IMG/VR virus record: IMGVR_UViG_3300045988_180880
Location: 32,001 to 96,000 of that record
Reading direction: 5' to 3' (one strand)
Origin: a virus
Length of the DNA stretch: 64,000 bases
Below the pieces are notes generated by a model. That model worked only from the letters and a program-made list of their open reading frames with translations, ran no database searches and was not told the origin of the DNA. The position numbers and the translations under genes are program-made. Positions 2,314-61,406 of this stretch are shown piece after piece (positions within the stretch are counted from its first letter, which is position 1; every line of letters begins with the position of its first letter).

Positions 2314-2709
2314 ATGATAGAAAAACTTAACACACTAATGACAATATTAAGTGCATTAGGATTATTAAGAGACGGAGTAAAAAATTACATAGATGTCTCA
2401 GTTGAAAATAGTTTATCCAATGGAATAGTAGATAAACTAAAAGATAGTTATGACAACTATACAGCTATCTTAAACAAGTATGCGATTGAAGGAAAGGATT
2501 TTGATGTTCCTTCGATTAATAGAGATTACGTAATAAGAAAACTGCGATTAATAAAAACAATAGTAAACAGATTAGTCGAATATTATATCAATGAGCCAGA
2601 AACATTGAGAGATTATAAACAATCCCTCTATTTGATTGGCGCTGACATAGATAGTATATATCGAAAGTCTGTTGTTGATTATAAAACGTTTTTGCTTGCA
2701 GTTAAGTAA
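2314..2709 (+). CDS. hypothetical protein
   Basis: ORF track; preceded by promoter motif, followed by terminator. Confidence 0.5.
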   Translation: MIEKLNTLMTILSALGLLRDGVKNYIDVSVENSLSNGIVDKLKDSYDNYTAILNKYAIEGKDFDVPSINRDYVIRKLRLIKTIVNRLVEYYINEPETLRDYKQSLYLIGADIDSIYRKSVVDYKTFLLAVK

Positions 2710-2711
2710 GA

Positions 2712-2741
2712 AAAGGGTGGAATTACCCACCCTTTATTTTT
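2712..2741 (+). terminator. rho-independent terminator
   Basis: aaagggtgg / ccacccttt 9-bp stem, 6-nt loop, then T-rich run. Confidence 0.7.
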
Positions 2742-2760
2742 CCACCGTCTAGAAAAGACT

Positions 2761-2776
2761 AAAAACCTTATATATG
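2761..2776 (+). promoter_or_regulatory. phage promoter-like motif, no ORF downstream
   Basis: aaaaaccttatatatg; first of two tandem copies opening an ORF-free 0.9-kb stretch. Confidence 0.45.
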
Positions 2777-2830
2777 AAAGGAAAATAGAGTTCCTAAGAG
2801 GTTAAAATAATACCGTCTAAGAAACCCTAT

Positions 2831-2844
2831 TAGCCTTATATATG
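2831..2844 (+). promoter_or_regulatory. phage promoter-like motif, no ORF downstream
   Basis: tagccttatatatg; both copies preceded by accgtcta(g/a)gaaa. Confidence 0.45.
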
Positions 2845-3700
2845 TAATAAAAGATAGAAATATCTGATATTACCTAAAGACATAGTATATCTAATTTAAA
2901 AGATATATTATGTCTTTTATACTTTAGCGTTATACATAGATATAACTAGAACTTATAATACATACGAAAGGTGTGATGACGGAGTATTATAAGGAGAGAC
3001 TAGGAGTTGCTAACCTAGAAGTCGTCAGAACGACTTTATAAAATTCATCACCTTGATCTAACTTATAATTATGAAATATAATATAAGGACAGGTGGAAGT
3101 TGTTATACCACTTGAGTAGATATTTAAATAGTATTAAAATATCTTTTACAAGGATAAGTTCTGAGCGTAATTAAATAAGTATATTAAGTTACTATATTGA
3201 ATTATACTATTTATCAAAATAGAGAAAATACTTAATATAACTTAATAATTGATAAAGGTTGGACACATAACTTGGCAAGCACTAACAAATTATAATGTGC
3301 ATTTAGCTGAGTTTAACAAAATAAATTAAAATTAAATAAATTCCTTGTAATAGATGATATTATAAGGCCACGATATATTGAGATAAACCTGATAAAGGAT
3401 TATCAAGAGAAATATATCAAAGACATGTAGCCAAATATATGTGGTGAACTATGAAAATAATAAAGGACCTGTATAGTCTAGAGTTATTAGTAATAGGATG
3501 TGAATTTAGAGGGATTTAATATACAGTTAAATTATTATATATAACCTATGATAAATACCGATGAGGAAATTATAAAGATTATATATAATTCTAAGTTAGA
3601 AATCTTTAAGAGAGAAGCTTAGAGTAAAAACAACCATTTCTAAGTAAATTACTTAGAAAATAGAGACAAAAGAATATTAACAACAAAAAATTATAGAATT

Positions 3701-8333: not shown

Positions 8334-8751
8334 TTTCAGAAGAATTTAGAATATTTATTACAGTTTTTGAATCTCCTACAATTAAATATGTATCTTTCTT
8401 TTTAATTATATCGACTATCGTTTTTAAAGATATTTCTAATGAATTAATCTTTTTCCAATTTTTATCACAAATAATAGGATCATAAGAAGTATTCCCTCGA
8501 TGTTTATCTTCGAGGTTAATAATTCCTAAACTTTCCATACGCTTCATAAGACATTTTAACCCTGTTTTCTTAAAATAATATTCAGGCTCAACTCCTAATT
8601 CTATAACCAATTTATTTTTCTTTCCAGGAACTATACTTGGATTCCTAGTATATTTCTTCGGAGTTAATTCTATTGTAGCAGAATATATAAGAACATGGTC
8701 GATATCAAAGAAATATACGCCCCATTCTCCTTTCTGTTCTAGGTTAATCAT
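8317..8751 (-). CDS. hypothetical protein (possible HAD-like motif I FFDIDHVLI)
   Basis: ORF track; DxDxV-like motif only, weak. Confidence 0.45.
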   Translation of the reverse strand: MINLEQKGEWGVYFFDIDHVLIYSATIELTPKKYTRNPSIVPGKKNKLVIELGVEPEYYFKKTGLKCLMKRMESLGIINLEDKHRGNTSYDPIICDKNWKKINSLEISLKTIVDIIKKKDTYLIVGDSKTVINILNSSESLKFL

Positions 8752-9674
8752 TAGAAATATATGTTAAGAAGTTGTCCAAGATCTATATAATCAATTCCTA
8801 CTTTTTCTGCTGCTAATATATCTCTATTACTTTGACCATATAAACCAGATTCAAGTCCAATTTGTATGGCTGAATTCTTATCAAATCCACGAGTCTTAGA
8901 AATTACAGCATCCATCATTCTATCTTTAGATTGTCCAAAATCATTCTGTACTAAGATTTGACAATGATCATACGGAACTCTTAGATATTCTGATAAAGCA
9001 CAAACAATATATTCTAACATTATTTTCCAAGAATCTGAACCATTACTACTTAAGATTAGATTTCTTGGAACCATAGCATAAACTTTATTTGGGTTAAAAC
9101 ATAAAATCTTATCCCAAACTTCAAAACGGAGTCTAATATCATAAATTCCACGTGGAAGAAGACCTGGTTTTCCATTACTCTGAAAAGTTTCTACTAGACA
9201 ATCTAAGACATCACAAAATATTACTTGTTTCTGTCGATCAATTTCTTTTCTTCCATTATTTGTATTACTACTTCCCCAGGATCCTCCAGTATTACCACTA
9301 CTACCCCAGCCAGAAGATCCACTCCAAGATCCTCCTGAGTTTCCCCAAGAATTTCCTCCTGCCGGTTTTGTTTGCCATGGATACTGTTGATTATTACTTC
9401 CTCCCCACGAAGATCCTCCTCCGTTATTGTTCCAAGATGGAGTTGATGGTTGACCCCAATTACCTCCACCTACACTTTGTCCAAATGGTGTCTGTTGCAT
9501 AATTTTTTCATTCAATTCTTTTTGACCTTTAACTACTTTTTCTATTCTCTCATCCTCCTCTGCTTCATCGATTTCATTGATATCATCATCGTCATCATCT
9601 CCTGAATCATATGGAGGTTCTTCCGAAGAGTAGTCAGGCTTTAGATATTCTTTAAATTTATTATCTTCTTCCAT
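8751..9674 (-). CDS. protein with acidic N-terminus, G/S/N/W-rich low-complexity linker and PNKP/HAD-like C-domain (weak)
   Basis: DDDDDDINEIDEAEEDE; GGNWGQPSTPSWNNNGGGSSWGGS...; C-terminal IGLESGLYGQSNRDILAAEKVGIDYIDLGQLL resembles the end of HAD 3'-phosphatase domains, but motif I is degenerate (FCDVLDCLV). Confidence 0.45.
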   Translation of the reverse strand: MEEDNKFKEYLKPDYSSEEPPYDSGDDDDDDINEIDEAEEDERIEKVVKGQKELNEKIMQQTPFGQSVGGGNWGQPSTPSWNNNGGGSSWGGSNNQQYPWQTKPAGGNSWGNSGGSWSGSSGWGSSGNTGGSWGSSNTNNGRKEIDRQKQVIFCDVLDCLVETFQSNGKPGLLPRGIYDIRLRFEVWDKILCFNPNKVYAMVPRNLILSSNGSDSWKIMLEYIVCALSEYLRVPYDHCQILVQNDFGQSKDRMMDAVISKTRGFDKNSAIQIGLESGLYGQSNRDILAAEKVGIDYIDLGQLLNIYF

Positions 9675-10410: not shown

Positions 10411-10781
10411 GTAAATTTTATATTATCTAAGTTTTTTACTAAATGTTTCAAATCATTCGCATAAGGACAATTTTTAGATCCTTGGATAAATGATTTTTTG
10501 AGTTCTTCTAGGTCAACACTAACTTCCTGAATGATTAAGCAATCGATCATATTTCTATATCGAAGATGTTCTAATAAAGAAGTATCATCACAAAATCGAA
10601 ATATACAAAATTTTCCAAGACAAGTTTTTACATAAATTTGTTTAGGAGTTATTCTCTTAGTCGCTAACCCATCTAAATTATATTCTAAAATAAAGTTCTC
10701 TCCAAGAATATTTCCACTAACAATTCCAATATCAGTTGATAATTCTTTTTGAAGTCTTCTGTAAAAACTAATCTTCACCAT
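10407..10781 (-). CDS. hypothetical protein, tandem paralog 1 of 3
   Basis: KRITPKQIYVKTCLGKFCIFRF; QEVSVDLEELKKSFIQGSK. Confidence 0.5.
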   Translation of the reverse strand: MVKISFYRRLQKELSTDIGIVSGNILGENFILEYNLDGLATKRITPKQIYVKTCLGKFCIFRFCDDTSLLEHLRYRNMIDCLIIQEVSVDLEELKKSFIQGSKNCPYANDLKHLVKNLDNIKFT

Positions 10782-11565
10782 CTCCAGTTCCTGCTTTAAT
10801 AGATAAAATAGGTTTAATAATTTCCAAAATTTTCACTGTATCTTGTATTCCAGTTATTATTTCAGAAGGATCTTTATATACCTCGGGCGCTTCATCAATA
10901 CAGGCGAGACATACAGAACTAGAATATACATTGCCCATACTTTCTTTAAATTCTTGGAGACTTAATCGTTCTCTTGCTTCTCGCCTAGACATTAAGCGCC
11001 CAGCACCATGAGGAGCACTATAATTTCTATCAGGATTACCAAGACCTTCACAAATTAAGGTTCCAAAAGCCATGTTCATAGGGATAATTACTTTCTGTCC
11101 GGCGTAAGCTTGAATAGATCCTTTTCTAATTATTCTATCTCTTGGATCTATATAATTATGAATAGACTCAATCCTCTCAAGCTCTTTTCCGAGTCCAAGA
11201 GCTTTTTTAATTCTCTCTGATATCACCATTCGATTATATTCTGCATAAGCTTGAGCAAAAAACATATCCCCGAGATAACCAGATATATCTTCATGTGTTA
11301 CTAAGAATCTACTAGGCGGAATTGTATATCGGCCGGAAGCATGAAGTTTTTCTATTTCTTCTTTGATTTTCTTCCCTTGACCTTTATACTTCTCCTTAAT
11401 TCCTCTCTCGGCCGCTTTCATATCCGCCTCAATTATCCTAGTTTTCCCAATTTGTTTTTTCCAATAAGCAAGTATTTTTATTCCTAAGTTTCTTGATCCT
11501 GTATGAATAGTAACCCAAACAGACTCTTTATCTTCTTCTACCTGTCCAAGTTCTATAAAATGATT
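10768..11565 (-). CDS. rtcB: RNA ligase RtcB, exon 2
   Basis: starts NHFIELGQ..; HTGSRNLG, APHGAGR blocks; the ORF-track Met at 11607 and its first 14 aa lie inside the intron. Confidence 0.85.
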   Translation of the reverse strand, partial: NHFIELGQVEEDKESVWVTIHTGSRNLGIKILAYWKKQIGKTRIIEADMKAAERGIKEKYKGQGKKIKEEIEKLHASGRYTIPPSRFLVTHEDISGYLGDMFFAQAYAEYNRMVISERIKKALGLGKELERIESIHNYIDPRDRIIRKGSIQAYAGQKVIIPMNMAFGTLICEGLGNPDRNYSAPHGAGRLMSRREARERLSLQEFKESMGNVYSSSVCLACIDEAPEVYKDPSEIITGIQDTVKILEIIKPILSIKAGTGDGED

Positions 11566-11815
11566 CAATTTTGTTACTAATACCTTTTCAAGTATTGGAT
11601 AGGTCATTTCTGCCTATCTCTAGTAGTTCTTTTTCCTACTAGTTCGGAGCACACCTTCTGACTTTTATGCCAGGCCAAGTCCCTCTGCTCTCTACGGGGG
11701 TATAAGTTTTAACACTATAACCTTCCCTCGGTGATTAGCATCTCAGCTTCTCCCGATATGGACGACTTTTACAACGAATGACTATTAATCATTCTGGAGG
11801 CAATCAATTTTTCTC
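11566..11815 (-). ncRNA. group I intron in rtcB (250 nt, ORF-less, GC-richer than surroundings)
   Basis: minus-strand P1 ggaggU / Gcctcc with U.G at the splice site; ends ..acaaaattG; splicing joins ..SLGTLGGG|NHFIEL, the RtcB GGGNHF block; exon lengths 1452 and 798 nt, both in frame. Confidence 0.8.
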
Positions 11816-13267
11816 ACCTCCACCAAGAGTTCCAAGAGATTTATAGAAAATTCCCTCAGACATACCAATTCTTTTAAGGGTTTTTGATATAAATTTCTCT
11901 ATCTCTCCAAGACCCTCATAACATACAAATTCAGGCCATAAACTTCTTGCTCTTTCAAGTTTTGTTTTAAAAAATTTCTTGAATTCTTTTTCTTGGATAA
12001 CAGTTTTCTCATTAATCTCCATACCCATTGGAATATCTCTACGAATTCTAGCATCCCAAAGAGCTAATTCTGGATCTCCCGAAGGCATTTTATATTTTAC
12101 ACTTAACATTCCACAATTACCAGTAATAAAAATTCTTCCATTTCTTCTACATACAAAATATCCAGTATCCGTGGTAAAACAATATTTAAATCCATCAATA
12201 GAAGGAACAATACTAGATTTTTTATTATAAGTAACTATTTTATTCCTAGCAGGACTCACATAATAAACTATATTCCATCTCTCTTTTCCTAAAATTTCTG
12301 AAATTCCTGCTCTAGTATTTGTAGCCGAAAATGCAAATTGAATTACATCTATATTATCTTTATTAGTATTTGAATAAGAACTTCTATATCCATTATGTCC
12401 ATCCCAAAGTAAACACTCTTCTTTTACTATTTCAAGTTGCTCTTTAGTAGCCAGATAATACTTTTTAAGATCTTTGTTTATTGAAAAATCTACATTAAAT
12501 CGTATAGAAGTAGATTTATCTTTTAATATTGAAATTTTATACTCAATATTAGCATCCTCTAATAATTTTTTTGCTCTTTCTATTTTTCTTTCTTTTCTAA
12601 AATGTAATTCTATTCTATTATGATCTTTAGCAGGTATTATCTTTCCATCCGCTTGTACCATAATATCTATTCTAATCATTTCATTGGACAAACTAACACC
12701 TGGGTTATTAGATATATTAAAACAAGTTTTAAATCCATAAAAACCTTTAGATAAATTGAGTTTATCTAATTCTATTGGAGTAATTTTTCTATGATTCAAT
12801 TTATGTCCCTTCCAATATCCAGAGTATACTAATAAATTATGTTCTGAACTAATCAATTGATCTAATCCACTTTTCTTATTATAATATTGATGAAATTCAG
12901 TACAAGGAGATTTTATATACTTTATAGGTTTTAAAAATTTTCCCTCATCCGTTTCCGGATCAAATTGCATAATCTCTTCATCAGCATAGTTAGATATTTT
13001 AATCCACCCAGTTGGTGTTAACACTTCTGTATCACAATCTAGACACGATATATCACAGCCAACTACATCAGGATCAAGAGGACCGCCAGAATAAGTTTGA
13101 GTATATCCTACTACGCAACCTTTCCCACAATGAACATCCTCCATAATCCTAACTGTTTCATTCTCAGTCATTTTAGTATTTAAAAGTTCGTAGACTTGAG
13201 AAACTGCTTCTGGTTCAATATTATCAGTAAAGACAATTGCTTTACCATATTTTCCTGTTATTTCCAT
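11816..13267 (-). CDS. rtcB: RNA ligase RtcB, exon 1 (contains intein)
   Basis: DVHCGKG, VGCDIS[intein]CGM, ends ..GTLGGG. Confidence 0.85.
12116..13045 (-). mobile_element. intein (310 aa) in the RtcB DI(G/S)-CGM active-site block
   Basis: starts CLDCDTEVLTPTGW (Cys1, block A), ends ..RIFITGN followed by extein Cys; large enough to hold an endonuclease domain. Confidence 0.75.
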
Positions 13268-13271
13268 ATCC

Positions 13272-13985
13272 CTATAATTTCTTTGATAAACTATAAATCC
13301 AATGACGTCCTTCTTCAGTCCACCTCTTTACATTTCTTGGTTTTCCTGCCTTGTCAAATATAGTAACTATTTTTGTATATCCAAATTTATCAAATGGTTC
13401 CTTTAAGTACCATTTCTTTTTATCATGAGATCTAAAAATTAAATTATTCTTCTCTAATAATCTTAATAATTCTATATTAGATATTCCAAGACCCAAATCT
13501 TTCACTATATCTCTTGTTGAATATAGATTTTCTGAAGTAGTTAGGACTCGATTACAATAATCTACTTGAGGCTGTTGATTTTGAATAGTAATCTGTAGGT
13601 TAGTAATTTCAGAGGTTAATCTTCCAATTTCAGCGTCTCTCAGAGCAAATCCATTATTTATAATTTCGTCTAATTTTCTTAGACACCATACTCCAAATTT
13701 AGGACTACACCACATAGCAAAATGAATAGCTATTAATCTATGCATCCAAGTACCTTGATTCTGAGGAATACCTCCTTTAATAACTACTATTAATTCCGAT
13801 ATCGGAATTCCGATATCGATCGAGACCTCATTGATTAATTCTTTTGTCTGTTGATTACTAAGATAATGACCTAACTGCTTCTTACAAACTTTTGCTATCT
13901 CAGTAGCATTAATCATGACATCATTACTTGTCAATGCAAATGGAATAATACATCCATTATACTCAAAATTTAATAATTCATTCAT
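13272..13985 (-). CDS. KilA-N / antirepressor (KilAC)-like DNA-binding protein
   Basis: N-half INATEIAKV...GTWMHRLIAIHFAMWCSPKF typical of KilA-N; C-half YSTRDIVKDLGLGISNIELLRLLEKNNLIF. Confidence 0.55.
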   Translation of the reverse strand: MNELLNFEYNGCIIPFALTSNDVMINATEIAKVCKKQLGHYLSNQQTKELINEVSIDIGIPISELIVVIKGGIPQNQGTWMHRLIAIHFAMWCSPKFGVWCLRKLDEIINNGFALRDAEIGRLTSEITNLQITIQNQQPQVDYCNRVLTTSENLYSTRDIVKDLGLGISNIELLRLLEKNNLIFRSHDKKKWYLKEPFDKFGYTKIVTIFDKAGKPRNVKRWTEEGRHWIYSLSKKL

Positions 13986-31940: not shown

Positions 31941-32354
31941 AATCTTCATATATTAGAATCTAAAGGATCCTAAAGAGCAAAATGTAACTTATTTATGAGG
32001 ACAAAGGAGCTTCCCTTATATTACACCCCTTTTCGCTACCGCTAGGGGTGTCTAAGGAAGAAACTTTGAATAGATATATAGAAAATAAACCCAGAAAATG
32101 AAGATGTTATAAAGATTTTATATTATTGATTTTCGCCTCTCCAAGGAGGCGAATCTAATCTAAATATTACAACTTTTTTTTAGGATAACATATTCTTTCA
32201 TTATTTGTATTTTTACTCCAATCTAAGTTGTTATTTTGCTCTTCTAATAACTTTAAACTCTAATTAATGAAAAAGGGAGACTCCTATGTCTTCATTTTTA
32301 TGTAACTGGATTCTGTATTGAATTAAAAAATAACAATTAAAATATTAAATATTT

Positions 32355-43002: not shown

Positions 43003-43195
43003 GAATATAAAATTGCCGTCTAAGGAAGTAATTCTCTAGATAATTAGTAAGTAAATTTGGTGAAGCTAGTAACTAGTAATACCAAGCCTTGGATTAATAA
43101 TTAGAATCTTAAGGTATAACGAATAAAGACTTACCAACTTTTTTATAAGTTGAATTTATATTCTAAACTATAATAAGAAAATTATAGATAAATTG
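43003..43195 (+). ncRNA. group I intron, family B copy 1 (193 nt)
   Basis: P1 ggU|ga / ttGcc; P3 agtaagt/acttacc, P4 tttggt/accaag, P7 gaata/tattc; ends ataaattG. Confidence 0.75.
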
Positions 43196-44123: not shown

Positions 44124-44474
44124 ATGAACGATAATTATTATAAAATTATACTATCATATGAAATTCCATATAACATTTTAGACAGTCAAGATCCGAATAT
44201 TATACAGGCGAGAGAAATATTATATGAAAAACTTAGAGATGATATTTTTCCGAAGTATGAAAGATTTTCGGTAAAGCTTACATTACATCAACTTAAAGAT
44301 AACTTCAATTATCTTGTTACTTATGAAGCTTTTTTTAGATCTCTTGATGGTAAACCTATGGGAGAATATGTAGAGGCTCGTAGCTTAAAAGATAGTATTA
44401 AATCAGAATTAGAAACATTTTTTAATTCAGTAGATTGCGAATATAAGCAATTAAATATAAAACCATTAGTATAA
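44124..44474 (+). CDS. hypothetical protein between beta' and beta genes
   Basis: ORF track; stop overlaps the beta start (TAATG). Confidence 0.5.
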   Translation: MNDNYYKIILSYEIPYNILDSQDPNIIQAREILYEKLRDDIFPKYERFSVKLTLHQLKDNFNYLVTYEAFFRSLDGKPMGEYVEARSLKDSIKSELETFFNSVDCEYKQLNIKPLV

Positions 44475-45336
44475 TGAGTAATTTTAATCAATATTTCAGA
44501 AACACTGGAGCAAAAATTATAGTAGATCGATTTTTTAATAAAGTTGATGCATATAATCCTAAAGTAAAAGTTGGAAAAATTGGATATTCATTTATAGAAG
44601 AACCTCCTCAACCAGCTTCTTACTATATTGAAAATGGATTAACTGCTACACATAAAGTAAGAATTGAATATACAACTATAACGGATGGGAAAGAAGATCC
44701 TGAAATGAAGTATGCAGAGTTCGAAGTTCCTAAAGAAATTGATGGTGCATTTATTATAGAAGGCGCTTATCGTATTTCAACTAATCGAATGGGATCTGAT
44801 TATGACTGTCGTATTAAAATGTCTGGTACAGGAGATTATAAAGTTAATTTCGACTATGATAGAGTTTACGATATTCAAAAACAGATTCTGAAGATAAAAA
44901 GAATTAATCCGGAACTTGGAATTGCAGATAAACCAATTGATATAAAGTTTGAAGACATTGATAAATACTTGGAAACTGATAAAAAGGAGATCTTGAAGTT
45001 AACTGAAAGACAAACCAAGAAATTAATGATCAAACTTGACTTGGATTATAAACCTGAATATATTACACAAAAACTAATACAGGAATGTTTGGCCTTTGGA
45101 GATGATAGACTAAAAGACTTAATCATTGATAAAACATTAGAATCAGTTCCTAACAGTTTTATGCAATATATTTTTAGGAATAATAATGGACGTAACTATT
45201 TTGCAGCTAGACGAAGAATTACATCATATTTTACAAAGTATGGTAAAATTCAAGATCAAGTTACTGCAATTAGTACTTTGTGTTTTAGATTTTTTAAAGG
45301 AAGTAGCGATAACAAAGGAGATTCAGGAGTACAGGT
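44474..45336 (+). CDS. rpoB: RNAP beta-like subunit, exon 1
   Basis: ends ..GDSGVQ(gt-); the ORF-track tail is intron. Confidence 0.75.
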
Positions 45337-45544
45337 ACAAAATATAAAGGTGCCGTTTTATGGAGAAATCTATAAAATTATTAGTAAGTAAATTCGGTGA
45401 AGGGTAAAACCTAATACCGAACTAAGGATAATGAAAATTTTTAGTGTAACGAATAAAGACTTACTAACTTATAATTAAAATATAAGTTAAATTTATATTC
45501 TGTTCTATATAAGTAGAACTTTATTTATATAGTTAACAATAAAG
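45337..45544 (+). ncRNA. group I intron, family B copy 2 (208 nt)
   Basis: P1 ggU|ac / gtGcc; P3 agtaagt/acttact, P4 ttcggt/accgaa, P7 gaata/tattc; ends caataaaG. Confidence 0.75.
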
Positions 45545-45635: not shown

Positions 45636-46763
45636 TTAGATTAAGTCTGATTATAGAATATTTTTTATAATAAAAACTTTGAGAATTGCTAGAAAACTAG
45701 TGATAGTTAATTAGCAGTATAAAATAAGTATAATTATTTATGCGTTGAGAGGAAAAATTTTTGAAAGGAATTTAAGAATGACGCATGTAAAAGAAATTAA
45801 ATACCACAATCAATTATGGTATTATAAAACGTACAATCAGTTAATAGATAAGTGTATACAGATGGAGTCTGAAGGTTATCCTGAAGATATGTATACAGAG
45901 GTTCACCACATACTACCTAAATGTATGGGTGGGACAAATGATGAGTCTAACTTAGTAAGAATGCCAGTTAGGTATCATATAATGGCACATTTATTGTTAG
46001 CACAAGTATATCCAGAAATAAATGGATTAGTTTATGCAGCACATGTTCTAGTCTCAGTGAATAATTCAGTTGTATCTACGAATACAGCTGCATTAATTAG
46101 AGAAGATTTTAAAAAGTCTAGAATAGGATCTCATCATTCAGAAGAGACAAGGAGAAAAATTTCTGAATCTAACAAAGGAAAAGTTATCCCTAGAGAACTA
46201 GTAGAGAAGTTAAGATCTATTAATTTAGGGAAGAAACATTCACTTGAAACGAGAAAGAAGATGTCAGAAGCTAGAAAAAGAGAGAATTTATCCGAGGAAA
46301 CACTAAGAAAAAGATCTCTAGCGTCCTCTGGAAGAAAACATTCTGAAGAAGTCAAGAAGAAGATTTCTATAGCTAATACTGGAAAAATTTTTAGCGAAGA
46401 ACACAGACAAAACATATCTAAAAGTAAGATGGGAAAAGGACATCCACATACTGAAAAAACAAAGAAAATGATGTCTGATACTAGCGTTAAGAGAAAAAGA
46501 GTTCAAGGCCCTGATGGAATAATTTACGAATCTATGAAACTTTGTTGTGAGAAATTTAATATTCATAGAGATACCCTTCGAAGCTGGATTAAAAATCACC
46601 CAGAAAAAGGCTTTAAATTTATTGATTAAAAAATTTATCATTACTATAAATTCCTTTCAATGTAATGAAATTTAATACTTATTTTATATTCAACGACTAT
46701 GTACAAAGAGGGAAATTCCTTAAGATATAGTCTAGTGATAAAGTAAAAAACTTTATCTATTCG
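45636..46763 (+). mobile_element. group I intron, family A, with HNH endonuclease ORF
   Basis: P1 cagaU|tta / taaGtctg; P aattgctagaaa, Q aattagcagt, R attcaacgactat, S aagatatagtct; ends ctattcG. Confidence 0.8.
45778..46629 (+). CDS. HNH homing endonuclease with NUMOD3-like repeats
   Basis: start moved to ATG 45778 (the track starts at an upstream TTG); first ~80 aa are near-identical to 37579..38364. Confidence 0.75.
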   Translation: MTHVKEIKYHNQLWYYKTYNQLIDKCIQMESEGYPEDMYTEVHHILPKCMGGTNDESNLVRMPVRYHIMAHLLLAQVYPEINGLVYAAHVLVSVNNSVVSTNTAALIREDFKKSRIGSHHSEETRRKISESNKGKVIPRELVEKLRSINLGKKHSLETRKKMSEARKRENLSEETLRKRSLASSGRKHSEEVKKKISIANTGKIFSEEHRQNISKSKMGKGHPHTEKTKKMMSDTSVKRKRVQGPDGIIYESMKLCCEKFNIHRDTLRSWIKNHPEKGFKFID

Positions 46764-47132
46764 TTAGTCGATATTGCCGACACTCCTATAAATAATAATA
46801 CTAACCTCCAGAACTCACTTACAGTTTCATGTCATATTACAGACGATGATGTACTATTTGATGTATATGATACAAATTTCGTAAAAATAACAATAAAATA
46901 TATAGACTATCTTAATAAAAAAGTAGCTGCCAGTGAGTATGTAGATTATGAAACTAACACTTTAAAGCCAGATAAAGATGGTCAAGTGGAGGTTAAGTAT
47001 AGGATGAAAAGAAAGATGGTTCCAGTCGAAGAAGTGGAATTGATCGATTTACATCCTGATTACAGATTGTCTAGCACAACTCGAAGAATCCCATTTGTGA
47101 ATTATACAGATAGTGTCAGAATAAGCATGGGT
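46764..47132 (+). CDS. rpoB: RNAP beta-like subunit, exon 3
   Basis: LVDIADTPINNNTNLQNSL (E. coli CPIETPEGPNIGLINSL) ... RRIPFVNYTDSVRISMG. Confidence 0.8.
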
Positions 47133-47326
47133 ACTAATTTATGTGCCGCTTAAAGTAGTAATATTTTAAGTAACCAGTAAGTAAATTCGGTGAAAGAGTG
47201 ACTGAGCTTTAATACCGAGCTAAAGATAATAGATTTCTTTAGTGTAACGAATAAAGACTTACTAACCAAAATAAAGGTTAAATTTATATTCTAAACTATA
47301 ATTAAAAGTATATTATAGAAGATTTG
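47133..47326 (+). ncRNA. group I intron, family B copy 3 (194 nt)
   Basis: P1 ggU|ac / gtGcc; core as in other B copies; ends aagatttG. Confidence 0.8.
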
Positions 47327-48266
47327 ACATCAATGCTTAAACAGAGTATACCTCTGATTAATGCGGAGCGTGCACTTGTTGACACTGGAAGGAATGAAGA
47401 GTTGAAAGATAATATATTAAATGAAAAGTTCAGTTATCCAGAGGGTAAGGTAAAGGATATAACAGAGGATGAAGTTATAATTGAATTGCCTGATGGAACT
47501 GAGACAAATATTTTACGAAGAACAGCGATTCAGAGTATAAATGACGTGGCGGTATTTACAGAGCCTAAAGTAAAAATCGGCCAAAAAGTAAAACAGGGAG
47601 ATATTATAACTGGTGCAGTTGGACATACTCCTGAAACATATAAGGCCGGCGTTAATGCTCTGGTACTTTTCCACGCCTATTATGGTTTAGTAAATGAGGA
47701 TGCTTTGGTGATATCAGAATCATTTGCAAATCGTATAGCATCTTATAGTATAATTGACTTAATGATTAATGTTAAGAGTACTAGTGCTATTAAGTGGATC
47801 GCCCCTATTGGAACAAAGGTTAAATCAAAAGATGCAGTAGTGACATTATATAAAGCTGTTCGTCTTGATGCTATAAATCAGGCACTACAAGAAAAACTCG
47901 GAGGACTTTTCGGAGAAGGACATGATCTCTCCGAATATACTATCGAGGATCATTTAGTTGTGCCTAATAATATAGACGAGGCAATAGTTTCTGATGTAAT
48001 GATACAGGAAATGAAGAAACCTAAAATTCCTAAATCAGTAAAATCACCTGACTATTCATTTACACATACCTCTCAGGATGTTATAGATGAATATGAAAAA
48101 ACAAAATCTCGAAAAATTATCTACGAGAAATACCCAGAGTATATTGCAGCTGATACATTAGATCCTATTAATATGGATCCAGAAGCGTATAAGATTGTGT
48201 ATACTGTTCGCGTGAGACTCATCAAAAGAACTGTGGGAATGATCGGAAGTAAAATTACCTCTAGAT
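47327..48266 (+). CDS. rpoB: RNAP beta-like subunit, exon 4
   Basis: junction SMG|TSMLKQSIPL aligns residue-for-residue with E. coli LMGANMQRQAVPT; ends ..GSKITSR(t--). Confidence 0.8.
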
Positions 48267-49666
48267 TTAATATAAGTCTAGTTAATTTTCAATAAAAGTT
48301 AACTAAATTTTGTGAATTGCTGGAAAAATCTAAATAAAATAGATGGATAGATAAATCAGCAGTATATTTATGTTTAATTATGAGTAAAATATGAGCGATA
48401 TTAATTTTTAATAATAAATTGAACAATGAGCGAAGAAGAAATATTAATACATAATCAAAATTGGTATCGCAAAGTATATTTCCAAATAATTGATCGCGCT
48501 AGATTAAGAGGTTTGGATAAAAATAAAATTGATTTTTATGTAGAAATTCATCATATACTACCTAAATGCCTAGGAGGAACTGATGAAAATGATAACTTAG
48601 TTGCATTAACTTATAGAGAACATATAGTTTGTCATAAATTATTGTGTAAATTATACCCAGATAATTACTACTTACATTCTTCTATATATTTAATGCTACA
48701 TATTAAAATAGAAAATGGGAAGAAGGTAAAAACATTTTCTAATTCTAAAGAGGCAGAAGAATATAAGCTTTTCTTGAAAACTCATAAAAAGCCTCTTTCT
48801 GAGGAATCTAGAAAAAAGATGTCAGAATCGCATAAAGGTTGGAGTCCATCTGAGGAACATAGAAGAAGAGTTTCAGAAGTACATACTGGAAAAATCGTTT
48901 CAAAAGAAACCAGAGAAAAATTAAGAAAGGTTAATCTGGGAAGACATCATACAGAAGAATCCAAAAGAAAGATATCAGAGTCACGTAGAGGAAAGAAATT
49001 ATCTTCAGAACAAAAAGAAAAAATTTCAAAATCACTAAAAGGAAAAAGATTAGGAATCTCTCCAACTAAGGAACAAGTAGAAAAAGCAAAACAAACTCGG
49101 ATACTCCATGGAGGGTGGGTACATACAGATGAAAGTAAAAGAAAAATTTCAGAATCTTTAAAGAAGACGAATTCTGTCTCTGAACATATATCAGAAGATA
49201 TAAGAAATTCTTTAAGGAAAAAGTTTGGGTTCGCTGTAAGATATACTGATATTAATACTGGTGAAATTTACGAATTTGATTCAATTACAAAAGCTGTTAG
49301 TGAACTTAAAGAGTTAAGTATTATGAATAAAAGCTTTCATTTTATAAAGCGTTCTTGTACATTAAATATTAATGGATTTGAATTTATCAATGAAACAAAT
49401 GAAATGATTCAAAAGAAAGTTCAGGGGCCTGATGGAATTATTTACAATAGTATATCTGAATGTGCTAGACAATTGAATACAGTTAGATCTGTAATTATTG
49501 ATTGGATTACTAATCATCCAGAAAAAGGATTTAAATACATTTAAAAAATCAATCGCTCATTGATATAAAAATAATTAAATAAAATATATTCAACGACTAT
49601 GTACAAAGAAGGAGTATTTCCTTAAGATATAGTCTAGACTTTACTTAATTAAGTAAAGTATTATCG
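48267..49666 (+). mobile_element. group I intron, family A, with HNH endonuclease ORF
   Basis: P1 ctagaU / Gtctag; P aattgctggaaaa, Q aaatcagcagt, R attcaacgactat, S aagatatagtct; ends tattatcG. Confidence 0.8.
48426..49544 (+). CDS. HNH homing endonuclease with NUMOD3-like repeats
   Basis: EIHHILPKCLGGTDENDN; many SEExRxKxSExxKG repeats; C-terminal WITNHPEKGFKYI as in the two paralogs. Confidence 0.75.
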   Translation: MSEEEILIHNQNWYRKVYFQIIDRARLRGLDKNKIDFYVEIHHILPKCLGGTDENDNLVALTYREHIVCHKLLCKLYPDNYYLHSSIYLMLHIKIENGKKVKTFSNSKEAEEYKLFLKTHKKPLSEESRKKMSESHKGWSPSEEHRRRVSEVHTGKIVSKETREKLRKVNLGRHHTEESKRKISESRRGKKLSSEQKEKISKSLKGKRLGISPTKEQVEKAKQTRILHGGWVHTDESKRKISESLKKTNSVSEHISEDIRNSLRKKFGFAVRYTDINTGEIYEFDSITKAVSELKELSIMNKSFHFIKRSCTLNINGFEFINETNEMIQKKVQGPDGIIYNSISECARQLNTVRSVIIDWITNHPEKGFKYI

Positions 49667-49680: not shown

Positions 49681-49871
49681 CAAATTACAAGGCCGTTTAA
49701 GGTAGTAATATCTTAAATAATCAGTAAGTAAATTTGGTGAAGGAAGTAAAATTCTAATACCAAGCTAATAAAATATAATAATTTATTAGTATAACGAATA
49801 AAGACTTACTAGGTTGAAATAATACCTAAATTTATATTCTAATTTACTAGGATAATCTAGTAATAGTAATG
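49681..49871 (+). ncRNA. group I intron, family B copy 4 (191 nt)
   Basis: P1 ggU|c / gGcc; P3 agtaagt/acttact, P4 tttggt/accaag, P7 gaata/tattc; ends agtaatG. Confidence 0.75.
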
Positions 49872-50645
49872 GTTGTAAGTGCTGTGAAACCCGACGATAT
49901 GATGCCAATAATGGTAGATAAGGATGGGAAACAAAGACGTTGCGAAGTAGTGATGAATCCATACAGCACAATAAATCGTAAAATTCCGAGTGTCCTTATG
50001 GAATTACAACTCGGAAATATCGCTCACAAATTACACGATCTTGTAGATAATTATAAGAAAACAAAAACAGGGCAAAAGAAGATTAAGCCCCTTCTTGAAA
50101 CATATTACCCCGGACGTTTTACTAGTATGGATGTAGAAGAAATTATAGAACGTCATAATACTAGTAAAATCGAGGATATGTATTATTTCAATGTTGGCTG
50201 CTTCTCTACTAAATTTACTCCAGAACTTGTAAATCAATGGGCTGAAGATTTAGGTGTAGAAAGTCAGAGTAAAATTCTTATGCCTGAGACTGAATTAACA
50301 GATCTCGATGAATTAAAAGAAAATCTAGAACCAGAAGAATATGATAAATTAGTTTCTGGAATGTCTGGTAAGTTTAGAGAAGTAGATAAACCTTTGCAGG
50401 CGGGATTCATGACCCTTGAAGAGTTATACCATATACCATCATATAGTAATAAGGTTACATCAAGTCTATATGGCGTAGATATTAATGCTAAACGAGATGA
50501 ACCTATACTTGGAAAGGGACGCTATAGACAGACAGGACAGAAAATTGGTGAGATGGAATTGGCCGTATTACTTTCTAGAAATGCGGATCAATTTATCAGC
50601 GGTGCTAGAAAAGACACTGCGAAGGAAGATAATCAAATGTTCCTT
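49872..50645 (+). CDS. rpoB: RNAP beta-like subunit, exon 6
   Basis: VVSAVKPDDMMP..VVMNPYS...GQKIGEMELAVLL (E. coli GGQRFGEMEVWALE)...NQMFL. Confidence 0.8.
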
Positions 50646-50833
50646 AAATTATTGAGGCTAGTATCAATACAAACTGATACTAGAAAATATCTTAAATTGC
50701 TGGAACAAAGTAGAAAATCAGCATCAAGCTGTTGTTTTATAATTAACAGCTTGTTCAACGACTATAGTAGATACTAAAGAATACTTATTTTAGATAATAT
50801 AGTCTTACTTTAAATAAAATTAAAGATGAATAG
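50646..50833 (+). ncRNA. group I intron, family A (188 nt)
   Basis: P1 cctU|a / tGagg; P aaattgctggaac, Q aaatcagcatc, R gttcaacgactat, S gataatatagtct; ends atgaataG. Confidence 0.7.
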
Positions 50834-54867: not shown

Positions 54868-54941
54868 TGGGCCCAGCCAGGCTTGAACTGACGACCTTCT
54901 GATTATGAGTCAGCTTCTCTAACCAACTGAGATATGGGCCC
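54868..54941 (-). tRNA. tRNA with CAU anticodon (Met, or Ile if lysidine-modified)
   Basis: minus strand gggcccatatctcagttggttagagaagctgactCATaatcagaaggtcgtcagttcaagcctggctgggccca; 7-bp acceptor, GTTCAAG T-loop. Confidence 0.85.
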
Positions 54942-59037: not shown

Positions 59038-59437
59038 TTAAAATATAAATTAGTATATAATAATAATCTGCTTCTTCACAATCAACTTCTTGAATTCCAA
59101 CTACATCAATATTAGAATAATCTCCCCAGATCTTTACTACTTTTGACAATGACCCTAGAATATGTGCTAAATATTCAGGAGTATCTTGATATTTTCTGGC
59201 TTCGAATAGAATATTATAATAAATCCATTCACCAGCTTCTCGATTTCTTTTCTTTGTTTCTAAAAATCTCAATCCTATTCCTGGAGTTTTATCTATATAA
59301 TCATATTCTAAGATTCGTTGGGTTAATTGATTTTGAATTTCTAATCTAGTATTTCCTTTTAATCCAAGAAGTCGTTTTATATCGTTATTGTATTCCGGAA
59401 CTGCCATAACCTGATCCTCCTCGTTCTGTTTCATCAA
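58994..59437 (-). CDS. hypothetical protein
   Basis: ORF track; true start may be the internal Met (MAVPEY). Confidence 0.45.
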   Translation of the reverse strand: MMKQNEEDQVMAVPEYNNDIKRLLGLKGNTRLEIQNQLTQRILEYDYIDKTPGIGLRFLETKKRNREAGEWIYYNILFEARKYQDTPEYLAHILGSLSKVVKIWGDYSNIDVVGIQEVDCEEADYYYILIYILSDGKDKEKLESDGE

Positions 59438-59816
59438 GTTTACTAACTTCCTCTAATTCCATATGAGTTACTTCTGCACAAACCATCTGAGCAATTCTTT
59501 CTCCATGTTCTACAGTTACCTCTACAGGACTAAGATTAACTAAAATTACTCCAATTTCTCCTCTATAGTTTGAATCTATAGTGGCTGGTCCATTTAAAAC
59601 TCCTAATCCTTTTTTTAAGGCTTCTCCAGATCTAGCTCTAACTTGGATTTCAGTTCTAGGGGGAAGTTGAACATATATGCCTGTAGGAACTAATTTTCTT
59701 TCTAACGGTTTTAATGTAAATTCTTCACCGATATTTCTAAGGTCCATTCCAGAATCTCCAGGCTTTGCATAACTTGGAAGTGGAAATTTTGATTTATTAA
59801 TAATTTTTACAACCAT
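59385..59816 (-). CDS. dut: dUTP diphosphatase
   Basis: GDSGMDLR, ARSGEALK, GPATIDSNYRGEIGVILVN, GERIAQMV, ERGGSGYGSSG: all five dUTPase motifs. Confidence 0.9.
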   Translation of the reverse strand: MVVKIINKSKFPLPSYAKPGDSGMDLRNIGEEFTLKPLERKLVPTGIYVQLPPRTEIQVRARSGEALKKGLGVLNGPATIDSNYRGEIGVILVNLSPVEVTVEHGERIAQMVCAEVTHMELEEVSKLDETERGGSGYGSSGIQ

Positions 59817-60337
59817 GATACTGTATTACTATAAAATGTTTTATTACCTATACCTAAAAAATGTTTTTGTTCACGAGAATCAGTATATACATTTACATCC
59901 CCAATAAAGTCTTTAATAATTGTATAACACCAATCTCCATGTTCTACTAAAAAATCTGGCTTATATTTTAAAACTTCGTCAAGATAAAATACTCCAAAAG
60001 TCCCAGAATCTACACAATATCTTCCAATAGTTTCCCTCTGATTAACTAATTTTTCAAGATTAATCTGATTTTCAATTGAAGGATTATCGTAAAGATTATA
60101 GTAAGCTTCTTCAATATCATCTATGAATTTTTCAAGCTCAAGTAAGCCAAGAATATTTTTTAGTTTTGATACTTTCCATCTTCCATCTCCAACTCCAGTA
60201 TCTTCCCAAATATAATTATCAGAGAATCCTACTTCTTCCGAGATAGTCATATTATTATAATTAAATCCGTTTCCCCAATCCTTATTTTCTGCAATATAGC
60301 AGGGATCTGTGATAATAATCGTTCCGTTAAAATTCAT
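59807..60337 (-). CDS. hypothetical protein
   Basis: ORF track. Confidence 0.5.
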   Translation of the reverse strand: MNFNGTIIITDPCYIAENKDWGNGFNYNNMTISEEVGFSDNYIWEDTGVGDGRWKVSKLKNILGLLELEKFIDDIEEAYYNLYDNPSIENQINLEKLVNQRETIGRYCVDSGTFGVFYLDEVLKYKPDFLVEHGDWCYTIIKDFIGDVNVYTDSREQKHFLGIGNKTFYSNTVSWL

Positions 60338-60777
60338 AATTTATACTTTTTTCTTGTTCTAAACTTAAATAACCAAGATGTTCCAGAAATAAACTTTACT
60401 TGTCCAATTACATCAGGTCCTTTATACATTTCATTAATATTAGTTGAATAAACATTAAATCCATAGTTTTCAGGGCCAAGACAAGTTCTAGGTTTTATCA
60501 ATTCTCCAGATGCTATTAAAGATTGAAGAGTTGACATTAGATAATCATAATCTTCTGGTAATAGATAAGTCGGTTTTTCTAAGTCCTCCAGTGCTAAACA
60601 ATAATAAACTGGGAGACCTAGATATACCGTTTTTCCTTTCTGTTCAAATATAAGTAATCTAGTTTCTTTTTCATATCTTACTTTAATTGGAATCGGAAAG
60701 TTTGTTTTTACTGTATTATCAGAAAACTCTACTAAGGAATTATATATTTCTAGAATATCATTTTGTAGAGTAGTCAT
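60334..60777 (-). CDS. hypothetical protein
   Basis: ORF track. Confidence 0.5.
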   Translation of the reverse strand: MTTLQNDILEIYNSLVEFSDNTVKTNFPIPIKVRYEKETRLLIFEQKGKTVYLGLPVYYCLALEDLEKPTYLLPEDYDYLMSTLQSLIASGELIKPRTCLGPENYGFNVYSTNINEMYKGPDVIGQVKFISGTSWLFKFRTRKKYKL

Positions 60778-60782
60778 TGTAA

Positions 60783-61406
60783 TTAATCTTCAGAAGTTGC
60801 ACAAAATACTTTAATACCCATCTGATCTAAAAGATTATAGATCTGAGTAGTAATAGCTGGTGATACAGATCCAGTAGTATTCTTAATTTTATCCATATTA
60901 TTTAACAATAATGTAAATGGATTTTTAACACCACTTAATTTATTAGGATCAAACAAACCAGACTGTTCTACAATCTGCCTAAGGATAGCTGGAATTTCAA
61001 GACCTTCACCAGGAATAATTTTAGTTGCAGTTGGGTAATCATATTGCATAAAGTTGTAATCGATTACATTCCACTCTACTACATCACCTGTCGGGATACC
61101 GGTTGCATTTTCTTCATCATCAGCTACATTTTGAATCTGAACAAGATAACCAACTTGAGCTAACCAATAATTAATGCAAGAAAAATCCTTAGTACTCATT
61201 GTAGTTTCTGAATTAATAAAGCTTACTAATTCAGCGTTACCAATACTATTTTCGAAATTTGCTAAATTATTCTTTAAAAAACCCTTAACAAATTCCATAA
61301 CACTTACGCCCATACCTTCTTTATCAAAACGGCTACGAGCAACACAACGGCCTACCATAGAATTCATTTCTTGGGCCGGAATAGAATACAAATTTACTTC
61401 AATCAT
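60783..61406 (-). CDS. hypothetical protein
   Basis: ORF track. Confidence 0.5.
   Translation of the reverse strand: MIEVNLYSIPAQEMNSMVGRCVARSRFDKEGMGVSVMEFVKGFLKNNLANFENSIGNAELVSFINSETTMSTKDFSCINYWLAQVGYLVQIQNVADDEENATGIPTGDVVEWNVIDYNFMQYDYPTATKIIPGEGLEIPAILRQIVEQSGLFDPNKLSGVKNPFTLLLNNMDKIKNTTGSVSPAITTQIYNLLDQMGIKVFCATSED

Follow-up and report, generated by a model that had tools for sequence, protein, structure and literature searches.

The gene for the 3'-phosphate/5'-OH RNA ligase RtcB in a 64,000-nt stretch of viral DNA (positions 32,001 to 96,000 of IMG/VR record IMGVR_UViG_3300045988_180880; hereafter the window, whose positions are used for all coordinates) is interrupted twice. We consider it very probable that this rtcB of an uncultured jumbo phage of the human gut, located on the minus strand at 13267..10768, carries both an intein and a group I intron, and that both have to be removed before an active ligase can be formed.

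The gene is seen as two open reading frames (ORFs). The upstream ORF (11804..13267, minus strand) encodes 487 aa that start as RtcB, pass through a long unrelated stretch, return to RtcB and end in SLGTLGGG followed by EKN and a stop. The downstream ORF (10768..11607, minus strand) encodes 279 aa, opens with MTYPILEKVLVTKL and continues with NHFIELGQ through the RtcB C-terminus. Its called start at 11607 is an AUG inside the P9.1 loop of the intron. A first-pass annotation of this DNA had given the same ORFs, coordinates and end residues (EKN-stop and MTYPILEKVLVTKL), all of which were right. The protein insert corresponds to residues 75-384 of the exon-1 ORF (CLDCDTE...FITGN, then C) and splits DIS from CGM. 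Exon 1 is thereby divided into an N-extein part (13046..13267, minus strand; aa 1-74, ending in VVGCDIS, with the EDVHCGKG metal motif and a Pfam RtcB match), the intein coding sequence (12116..13045, minus strand; 930 nt in frame, 310 aa, Cys1...Thr-Gly-Asn, then Cys+1) and a C-extein part (11816..12115, minus strand; extein aa 75-174, CGMLSV...SLGTLGGG). Exon 2 (10768..11565, minus strand; extein aa 175-439, Pfam RtcB match at 154-425) begins with NHFIELGQ, and the stop codon is at 10770..10768.

The RNA insert between the exons (11566..11815, minus strand) is out of frame and contains no ORF. With the cut points GGU/G (11816/11815) and G/AAU (11566/11565), where the slash marks the splice site, exactly 250 nt are excised; the insert is preceded by U, and its first and last bases are both G. 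Its GC content is 40.4 %, compared to 29.1 % for the window, in agreement with the earlier description of a GC-richer 250-nt intron splitting GGG/NHFIE. It had been placed about 550 nt further into the gene than the intein, which was not correct: it begins 300 nt downstream of the intein, at 522 nt of the spliced coding sequence. Translation through the intron is not possible, because 250 is not divisible by three and a UGA follows in the exon-1 frame after three codons. The region folds more stably than shuffled sequences (z = -3.2). Read-through or in-frame insertion was rejected for the RNA insert (250 nt, in-frame stops), as were a group II intron, for which it is too short, and translational bypass.

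When both inserts are removed, one continuous RtcB of 439 aa is obtained. The joined product gives a single match to Pfam RtcB (PF01139) over positions 13-425 of 426 with 189 bits, while the raw ORFs separately give 32.5 and 121.4 bits. It aligns with Thermus thermophilus RtcB (2epg) without gaps through both VGCDIS-CGM and GTLGGG-NHFIEL, the exon junction after joining reads GGTGGAGGT-AATCATTTT, and the metal and GTP motifs EDVH, CDISCGM, GGGNHF and APHGAGR are all present. The computed masses are 49.4 kDa for the spliced RtcB and 36.0 kDa for the intein; the approximately 36 kDa predicted earlier for the intein was thus accurate, while approximately 48 kDa for RtcB was too low. In Pyrococcus horikoshii RtcB, Asp95/Cys98 and Asn202/His203 are catalytic and Cys98 together with Asp95 bridges two Mn ions (PMC9745838), which agrees with the earlier view that both inserts hit metal/GTP-site motifs. 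The residue Cys+1 corresponds to the Cys of the CGM motif that bridges the metals. As both inserts are located at catalytic residues, any failure of splicing would inactivate the ligase.

Judged from its sequence and predicted fold, the protein insert is a class 1-like intein, as had been proposed for the 310-aa element (Cys1...GN/C) in the DI(G/S)-CGM block; the family distribution, the splice residues and the structure model all agree with this. A database search with the insert alone gave 34 proteins, and homologues over 100 % of the 310 aa, with 24-38 % identity, were found in at least eight unrelated host families, including RtcB, DnaC/IstB-like proteins, guanylate kinase, terminase, AAA_19 helicase, ABC, AAA_25 and amidase_2. 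In every host the element starts with Cys1 and ends with FITGN, and the +1 residue is Cys, Ser or Thr. The insertion often splits the Walker A motif (GxxG/.../xGK[ST]), and the other members of the family were mostly found in the Walker A motifs of phage ATPases. The invariant columns of the family are C1, T6, E7, H69, D133, D215, C289, R300, F306, T308, G309 and N310; for C1, H69 and N310 this was seen in 27 family members. H69 is the block B histidine, and D133 and D215 are the acidic residues of the LAGLIDADG motifs IDIMVQADG and LLWDG (ECLLWDG). Every family-invariant splice residue is present in the window copy.

No match above threshold was obtained for the intein with the curated intein models (Pfam Intein_splicing/Hint, TIGR01445/01443), and the NCBIfam models for intein-containing RtcB matched only weakly. 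In a PDB sequence search the AceL NrdHF intein (6zgq) was found with E 0.028. Since sequence models gave only sub-threshold hints, structure prediction was needed. AlphaFold2 with the family alignment gave a model with a pLDDT (predicted local distance difference test) of 95.2 and a pTM (predicted template modelling score) of 0.92. The best match of this model in a Foldseek search against the PDB was TliVMA (7qsu, E 2e-12), followed by PI-SceI (1vde), PI-PfuI (1dq3) and PhoVMA (7qst), with TM-scores of 0.64-0.68. The middle domain matched I-DmoI, and this match, the helix pattern of the model, the invariance of D133 and D215 and a weak match to Pfam LAGLIDADG_3 form the basis for a predicted LAGLIDADG homing-endonuclease domain at approximately aa 118-245 (12311..12694, minus strand; the limits are approximate).

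Like the class 1 inteins PI-SceI, TliVMA and PI-PfuI, the window intein is predicted to combine a HINT fold with an inserted two-motif LAGLIDADG domain (E 2e-12 to 1e-9), and it shares with them Cys1, the block-B His, the C-terminal Asn and Cys+1. It differs from them in having only about 10 % identity, a smaller size (310 aa), a Gly where these have the penultimate His and a Ser where they have the block-B Thr. Class 3 inteins lack the N-terminal nucleophile and carry a Trp(B:12)-Cys(F:4)-Thr(G:5) 'WCT' triplet (PMC2807308). Cys289 is at block F:4, as judged by manual alignment, where class 1 inteins usually have Asp, and Thr308 is at G:5; both are shared with the class 3 prototype, the DnaB intein of mycobacteriophage Bethlehem. 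Class 3 inteins also share with the relatives of the window intein a preference for P-loop sites in phage proteins. The window intein nevertheless keeps Cys1 and Cys+1, and its B:12 position is hydrophobic (L/M/I/V/F in the family) and not Trp. A class 3 assignment was therefore rejected, as only Cys289 and Thr308 fit it, and the intein was filed as class 1-like on account of its retained Cys1 and the lack of Trp at B:12.

The RNA insert is, on the sequence evidence, a group I intron with P1-P10, as the first-pass annotation had suggested. With intron positions numbered n (window coordinate = 11816 - n), P1 is formed by GGAGGU, the last 6 nt of exon 1 (11821..11816, minus strand), and the internal guide sequence GCCUCC (n15-20), with a U.G pair at the splice site; the expected P1 and terminal G were both present. 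The in-frame stop UGA is at n10-12. The P10 guide GAUU (n11-14) lies directly 5' of the internal guide sequence and pairs with AAUC, the first 4 nt of exon 2. P2 is a 6-bp hairpin (n22-40). A putative P3 (GUCC/GGAC, 4 bp, n53-56/134-137), which would form a pseudoknot with P7, is followed by J3/4 (AUAU), P4 (CGGGA/UC[A]CCG, n61-65/82-87), P5 (n68-70/77-79) and P6 with inner extensions (n89-120), and J6/7 (GUA) leads to P7 (n124-130/165-170; 5' strand 11692..11686, 3' strand 11651..11646). P7 consists of G-C, a bulged A (A125), G-C, A-U, G-C, C-G and A-U, in this order. P8 (n144-157) and J8/7 (GAAGGUG) precede P7', and the catalytic centre, i.e. P7 enclosing P3' and P8, spans 11646..11692 (minus strand; assigned from the pair counts). 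The 3' part contains P9 with a GAA...GAA loop (n174-196), P9.1 with the loop CAGAAAUGA (n198-218), P9.2 with a GAAA loop (n220-237), the tail AACAAAAUUG and omega-G at n250. P7.1/P7.2 and P5abc are absent.

Intron relatives were sought among exon-2-only proteins, in IMG/VR (15-mer scan combined with nhmmer), in metagenomes (gapped-pattern scan) and in GTDB. Of the 84 exact 15-mer matches in IMG/VR most were due to chance, nhmmer keeping only true introns, and so were 7 of the 22 gapped-pattern matches in metagenomes. In the GTDB species genomes the core pattern matched just twice, by chance in both cases and within GC-rich coding DNA, and nhmmer with the intron core found no second copy in the window. 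Altogether 18 distinct homologues of 215-946 nt were obtained, all at GGG/NHF of rtcB, in hosts with RtcB identities down to approximately 40 %. The structure model was derived by hand. A whole-intron MAFFT alignment (A2) misaligned the 3' tails; the core alone was re-aligned (A3) and used for testing the model, and the tails were handled by script.

Standard pairs were present in 99.6 % of 773 pair cells (18 homologues, A3), compared to 32-55 % in a slid-partner control, and the observed covariation was reached by none of 500 shuffles. Compensatory changes on both sides occurred in 20 of the 43 modelled pairs (6/6 in P2, 2/3 in P5, 4/6 in P6, 2/6 in P7 and 6/7 in P9), and all 43 pairs are intact in the window copy. 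The degree of pairing and the compensatory changes indicate selection on the intron fold. In P7 two pairs change compensatorily in L047 and L053 (G-C to A-U and C-G to U-A), the rest being invariant. P9.0, in which the two bases before omega-G pair with J7/9, changes from AA/UU to AUG/CAU in the same two introns. In every homologue the interior of P6 and the whole of P8 form hairpins in the same position, with unrelated sequences. P1 is found in all 18 homologues and is invariant, hence without covariation, while the only change in P3 is one from G-C to G.U. A longer P3 register of 5-7 bp (AAGUC/GACUU) was rejected, as position 50, a G here, is C in nine relatives without compensation. All 18 introns end in G before AAUCA. 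The predicted guanosine-binding site (G124-C170, bulged A125, G126-C169, A127-U168) is invariant in the family. G126-C169, beside the bulged A125, is the predicted guanosine-binding pair, a geometry which we take to resemble that of the Tetrahymena P7 with its G264-C311.

The assignment to group I is thus based on covariation in P2, P5, P6, P7, P9 and P9.0, the variable P6 and P8 hairpins, the canonical P7, the U.G splice site, omega-G and P10, and further on the LAGLIDADG ORFs in the peripheral loops of the relatives. Such ORFs are located in the P9.1/P9.2 region of L055/56 (99 aa), L077/L141 and L092 (approximately 210 aa), and all of them score above the Pfam LAGLIDADG_3 cut-off.

Natural alleles were available from 17 close rtcB loci in IMG/VR, located on viral contigs of 166-378 kb and sorted by tblastn with the spliced protein. 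Neither insert is present in L008-11 and L015-17, nor in the additional locus L046, only the intron is present in L001, L004 and L012, and an intein and an intron as in the window are present in L002, L003, L006 and L007. L005, L013 and L014 have the intron and another in-frame insert near residue 44. The nucleotide identity of the alleles to the window over the coding sequence is 83-96 %. L001, L004, L012 and L015-17 lack exactly the 930 intein nucleotides; the N-extein is contiguous with the downstream extein and DIS/CGM is restored, the site reading GATATATCG/TGTGGT in L001. At the intron site the empty alleles read ...ggcggcggg/aatcac... (GGCGGCGGG/AATCAC) and the occupied ones ...ggtggaggt/intron/aatcat... 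(exon flanks GGTGGAGGT/AATCAT). The presence and absence of the inserts in near-identical phage contigs therefore fix the boundaries of both. The search with the spliced protein also gave RtcBs without interruption (P0001, 88 % identity), besides many ORFs with exon 2 only or exon 1 only.

Near the intron site, the sequence of the insert-free L015 departs from that of the window in a single tract (-16 to +26) and agrees with it elsewhere; in the intron-bearing L012 the converted tract is shorter. The P1-forming GGUGGAGGU always accompanies the intron in this clade, while empty alleles carry GGCGGCGGG. A mosaic of exon single-nucleotide polymorphisms is seen at the intron site (11790-11842 and 11540-11565, minus strand) in comparison with L015 and L012, and its sequence pattern fits that expected of co-conversion during homing. 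Free target sites for the intron are common, since the intron-less rtcB of 44 other viral contigs contains the exact uninterrupted 17-mer GGTGGAGGT/AATCAYTT.

Introns identical to that of the window are present in contigs labelled as human gut metagenome, and both exons are 100 % identical at the protein level to many independent contigs, the clusters P0007 and P0030 having 365 and 114 member sequences. The 2.5-kb region gave no blastn match ('distant') to GenBank phages, none of which has this rtcB gene at 60 % identity or above; the nearest phage RtcBs found by tblastn, in Phocaeicola and Bacteroides phages, are 41 % identical. In MT835481.1, a GenBank phage record from human faeces, the RtcB match is in two pieces (59232-61394, 2163 nt for approximately 431 aa), suggesting that this unannotated gut phage record contains an interrupted rtcB as well.

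Related FITGN inteins fill two further sites in the same RtcB clade, one within the first metal motif (IMED/C...N/CHAGKG, approximately 330 aa) and the other four residues upstream of the site used in the window (HVG/C...N/CDIGC). Carriers of the further sites are L005, L013 and L014 (approximately 2376-3347), L022 and the proteins P0123 and P0130. At least three intein sites and one intron site are thus present within rtcB of this clade.

The expression of the gene could proceed as follows. Before RNA splicing, ribosomes would halt at the UGA early in the intron. The 250-nt intron would fold into P1-P10, bind an exogenous guanosine in P7, cleave after the U of ggaggU and use its 3'-terminal G in joining GGU to AAU. 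The spliced mRNA would give a precursor of 749 aa, from which the intein would be excised by formation of a thioester at Cys1, transfer to Cys+1 and cyclisation of Asn310. The products would be the 49.4-kDa RtcB, with Cys+1 as the metal-bridging active-site Cys, and a free 36-kDa intein. The intein and the intron are two independent selfish elements. Homing of the intein into empty alleles would be driven by its two-motif LAGLIDADG endonuclease, which is probably still active, both catalytic Asp residues being conserved. The window intron appears to have lost an endonuclease ORF that relatives keep in the P9.1/P9.2 region, and it would depend on the endonucleases of these relatives or be fixed by descent. 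Both elements would move from one co-infecting phage to another, empty alleles being cleaved and then undergoing gene conversion through repair.

A number of observations weigh against the interpretation of rtcB as interrupted by a functional intein and a functional group I intron. For the intein, Pfam LAGLIDADG_3 (E 0.087) and TIGR01445 of NCBIfam (E 0.13) matched only below threshold, block B has Ser instead of Thr (SSEH, not TxxH), and Gly309 replaces the penultimate His (T-G-N) throughout the family. For the intron, P1, P3 and P4 showed no covariation among the 18 homologues, a P3 of merely 4 bp and only 3 nt between P7 and P3' are unusual, and there is no endonuclease ORF, so that the intron is not autonomously mobile. 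Neither RF00028 nor any other Rfam family matched the intron, no group I match being obtained on the whole window at the gathering threshold or at E <= 1, on 11400-12000 at E <= 10, or on eight loci with intron relatives at E <= 1. Furthermore, we infer the splicing competence of both elements from conservation only.

The block-B Thr and the penultimate His, for their part, assist splicing and do not define an intein, and some inteins have replaced the penultimate His by other residues (PMC2807308). The invariance of P1, P3 and P4 speaks neither for nor against these helices, except for the G.U change in P3. A cmsearch with RF00028, which the first-pass annotation had proposed as a check, gave no match, but the T4 control showed that this model is weak on phage introns: RF00028 (Rfam 15) gave the td intron of T4 40.3 bits, against a gathering cut-off of 50, and did not report the nrdB intron (L165, phage T4 100000-149999) at E <= 1. 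The silence of Rfam is therefore weak evidence. Our own covariance model of the family (R1) gave no significant match to the T4 td and nrdB introns (E >= 0.07), indicating that the family is not close to the IA2 introns in sequence.

Three other explanations were considered, each of which is contradicted, as far as the sequences can tell, by conservation and covariation. It is unlikely that the intein and the intron are what their descent suggests but that one or both no longer splice, leaving rtcB as a pseudogene or with a truncated or inactive product. The loss of the endonuclease ORF from the intron, the missing penultimate His and the failure of every standard model to recognise either element would all be compatible with such relics. 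A decaying intron is nevertheless difficult to reconcile with 43 intact pairs out of 43 and with a family in which 99.6 % of the pair cells are paired and changes are compensatory, and a decaying intein with a full set of family-invariant splice residues and a Gly-Asn C-terminus that is common to the family rather than a private mutation. Both exons have also stayed open, with identical protein sequences in many independent contigs. We consider it very unlikely that the two ORFs are translated separately, exon 2 from the AUG at 11607, and that the fragments assemble non-covalently with the RNA as a structured spacer. The AUG-initiated ORF 10768..11607 exists, and gene callers annotate the halves separately in many contigs, but this AUG is part of the conserved P9.1 loop (CAGAAAUGA), and in relatives that have no P9.1, among them L047, L053 and L143, this start is missing while the gene is still split. 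Moreover, a single catalytic motif is broken, between Gly and Asn-His, the spacer shows the complete group I architecture, including covariation, omega-G and P10, and relatives have the gene uninterrupted.

Removal of the RNA by something other than canonical group I self-splicing, such as a new ribozyme class or protein-dependent excision, seems hardly credible. The complete silence of Rfam, the lack of a significant match between R1 and the T4 td and nrdB introns, and the atypical short P3 and 3-nt J7/3 could be taken to favour it. The U.G pair, the internal guide sequence, the predicted P3/P7 pseudoknot topology, P4-P6, the bulged A of P7 next to a G-C/A-U step, P8, P9.0, P9, P10 and omega-G are, however, all found in canonical order; RF00028 also fails to report the bona fide nrdB intron of T4 and scores td below its cut-off, and a peripheral-loop location of LAGLIDADG ORFs is a typical trait of mobile group I introns.

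Retaining the intein and the group I intron, we would add two further possibilities, which taken together are rather doubtful. The widespread gut-phage intein family, with its combination of invariant Cys1, block-F Cys, G:5 Thr and Gly-Asn, could use the internal Cys for a mixed or class 3-like splicing route, which would place the intein mechanistically between class 1 and class 3. The intron family has a 4-bp P3, a 3-nt J7/3, a conserved P9 GAA...GAA loop and the CAGAAAUGA P9.1 loop, and on these features it may represent a structural subgroup outside current group I models that is specialised for GGG/NHF.

Inteins in RtcB at this site, group I introns in phage enzyme genes, and the presence of both in one gene are already known. 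RtcB has been reported as an intein host in 27 bacterial and 10 archaeal cases (PMC4760082) and has been listed among the intein hosts of actinobacteriophages (bioRxiv 10.1101/2025.01.02.630785). In P. horikoshii RtcB, Cys98 is the intein splice junction (PMC4150793), and this intein (in PH1602) interrupts the same host protein at the same site, immediately before the metal-bridging Cys of DIGCGM. Compared to the known RtcB inteins, the window intein has no significant similarity to curated models, belongs to a metagenomic FITGN family and is hosted by a jumbo phage, and its relatives use two more rtcB sites, MED/CH and VG/CDIGC. The T4 td, nrdB and nrdD introns (IA2) resemble the window intron in interrupting a phage enzyme gene within a conserved catalytic motif and in their early in-frame stop, and they share with its family peripheral-loop endonuclease ORFs (here in the relatives), presence/absence polymorphism and co-conversion tracts. 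They differ from the window intron, which lacks P7.1/P7.2 and sequence-level similarity to them. The endonucleases of phage introns are mostly of the GIY-YIG, HNH, PD-(D/E)xK or EDxHD type (PMC3984707), whereas the relatives of the rtcB intron carry LAGLIDADG enzymes. A group I intron together with an intein in one gene has been described in nrdE of the Bacillus phage SPbeta (PMC3653736), where both the RNA and the protein product of a phage enzyme gene are likewise interrupted; that gene encodes a ribonucleotide reductase, the phage is of another type and the elements are unrelated.

We found no earlier description of rtcB as the host of a group I intron, and the gene would thus be added to those known to carry such introns. 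It would also be the second clear case, after SPbeta nrdE, of a phage gene needing both RNA and protein splicing. The empty, intron-only and doubly occupied alleles, together with at least two more intein sites, make the clade a natural system in which homing, co-conversion and the interference of neighbouring selfish elements with one another could be studied. Rfam, Pfam and NCBIfam are blind to both elements, with the consequence that pipelines call two truncated 'RtcB' ORFs (P0007 and P0030); new database models could start from the present alignment and covariance model. The compact 310-aa Gly-Asn intein and the ribozymes of 215-250 nt may also serve as tools.

Other features of the window were also observed. 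An RNA-polymerase beta-like gene on the plus strand between 43000 and 51000 is apparently in pieces (ORFs 44474-45391, 47324-48295, with the Pfam Rpb2_6 match, and 49869-50777), and its spacers contain ORFs for HNH+NUMOD (I-HmuI-like) endonucleases (45745-46629 and 48426-49544, plus strand). The rtcB-intron model gave weak matches just upstream of where the polymerase exons restart (47125-47318, E 0.013; 49792-49863; 43117-43187; 45329-45516), sharing a P7-like CGAAUA...UAUUCU. These are probably further group I introns, corresponding to 'families A and B' of the first-pass annotation; Rfam matched none of these candidates in the window. In L050 (6733-6805) and L051 (4219-4294) nhmmer gave a weak second match to the P3-P6 part of the intron approximately 3.7 kb downstream of rtcB, which may be a related intron in another gene and which had no nhmmer counterpart in the window. 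One tRNA gene (62.9 bits) is located at 54868-54941 on the minus strand, and its antisense strand gave a spurious sub-threshold 'Plastid-ycf2' match. Downstream of rtcB, an ORF of 307 aa (8751-9674, minus strand) with an acidic N-terminus and a low-complexity stretch rich in G, S, N and W had no Pfam match. Directly upstream of rtcB, an ORF for a KilA-N/ANT (antirepressor-type) protein is located at 13272-13985 (minus strand). As its position varies or the ORF is absent in relatives, it is probably another mobile cassette.

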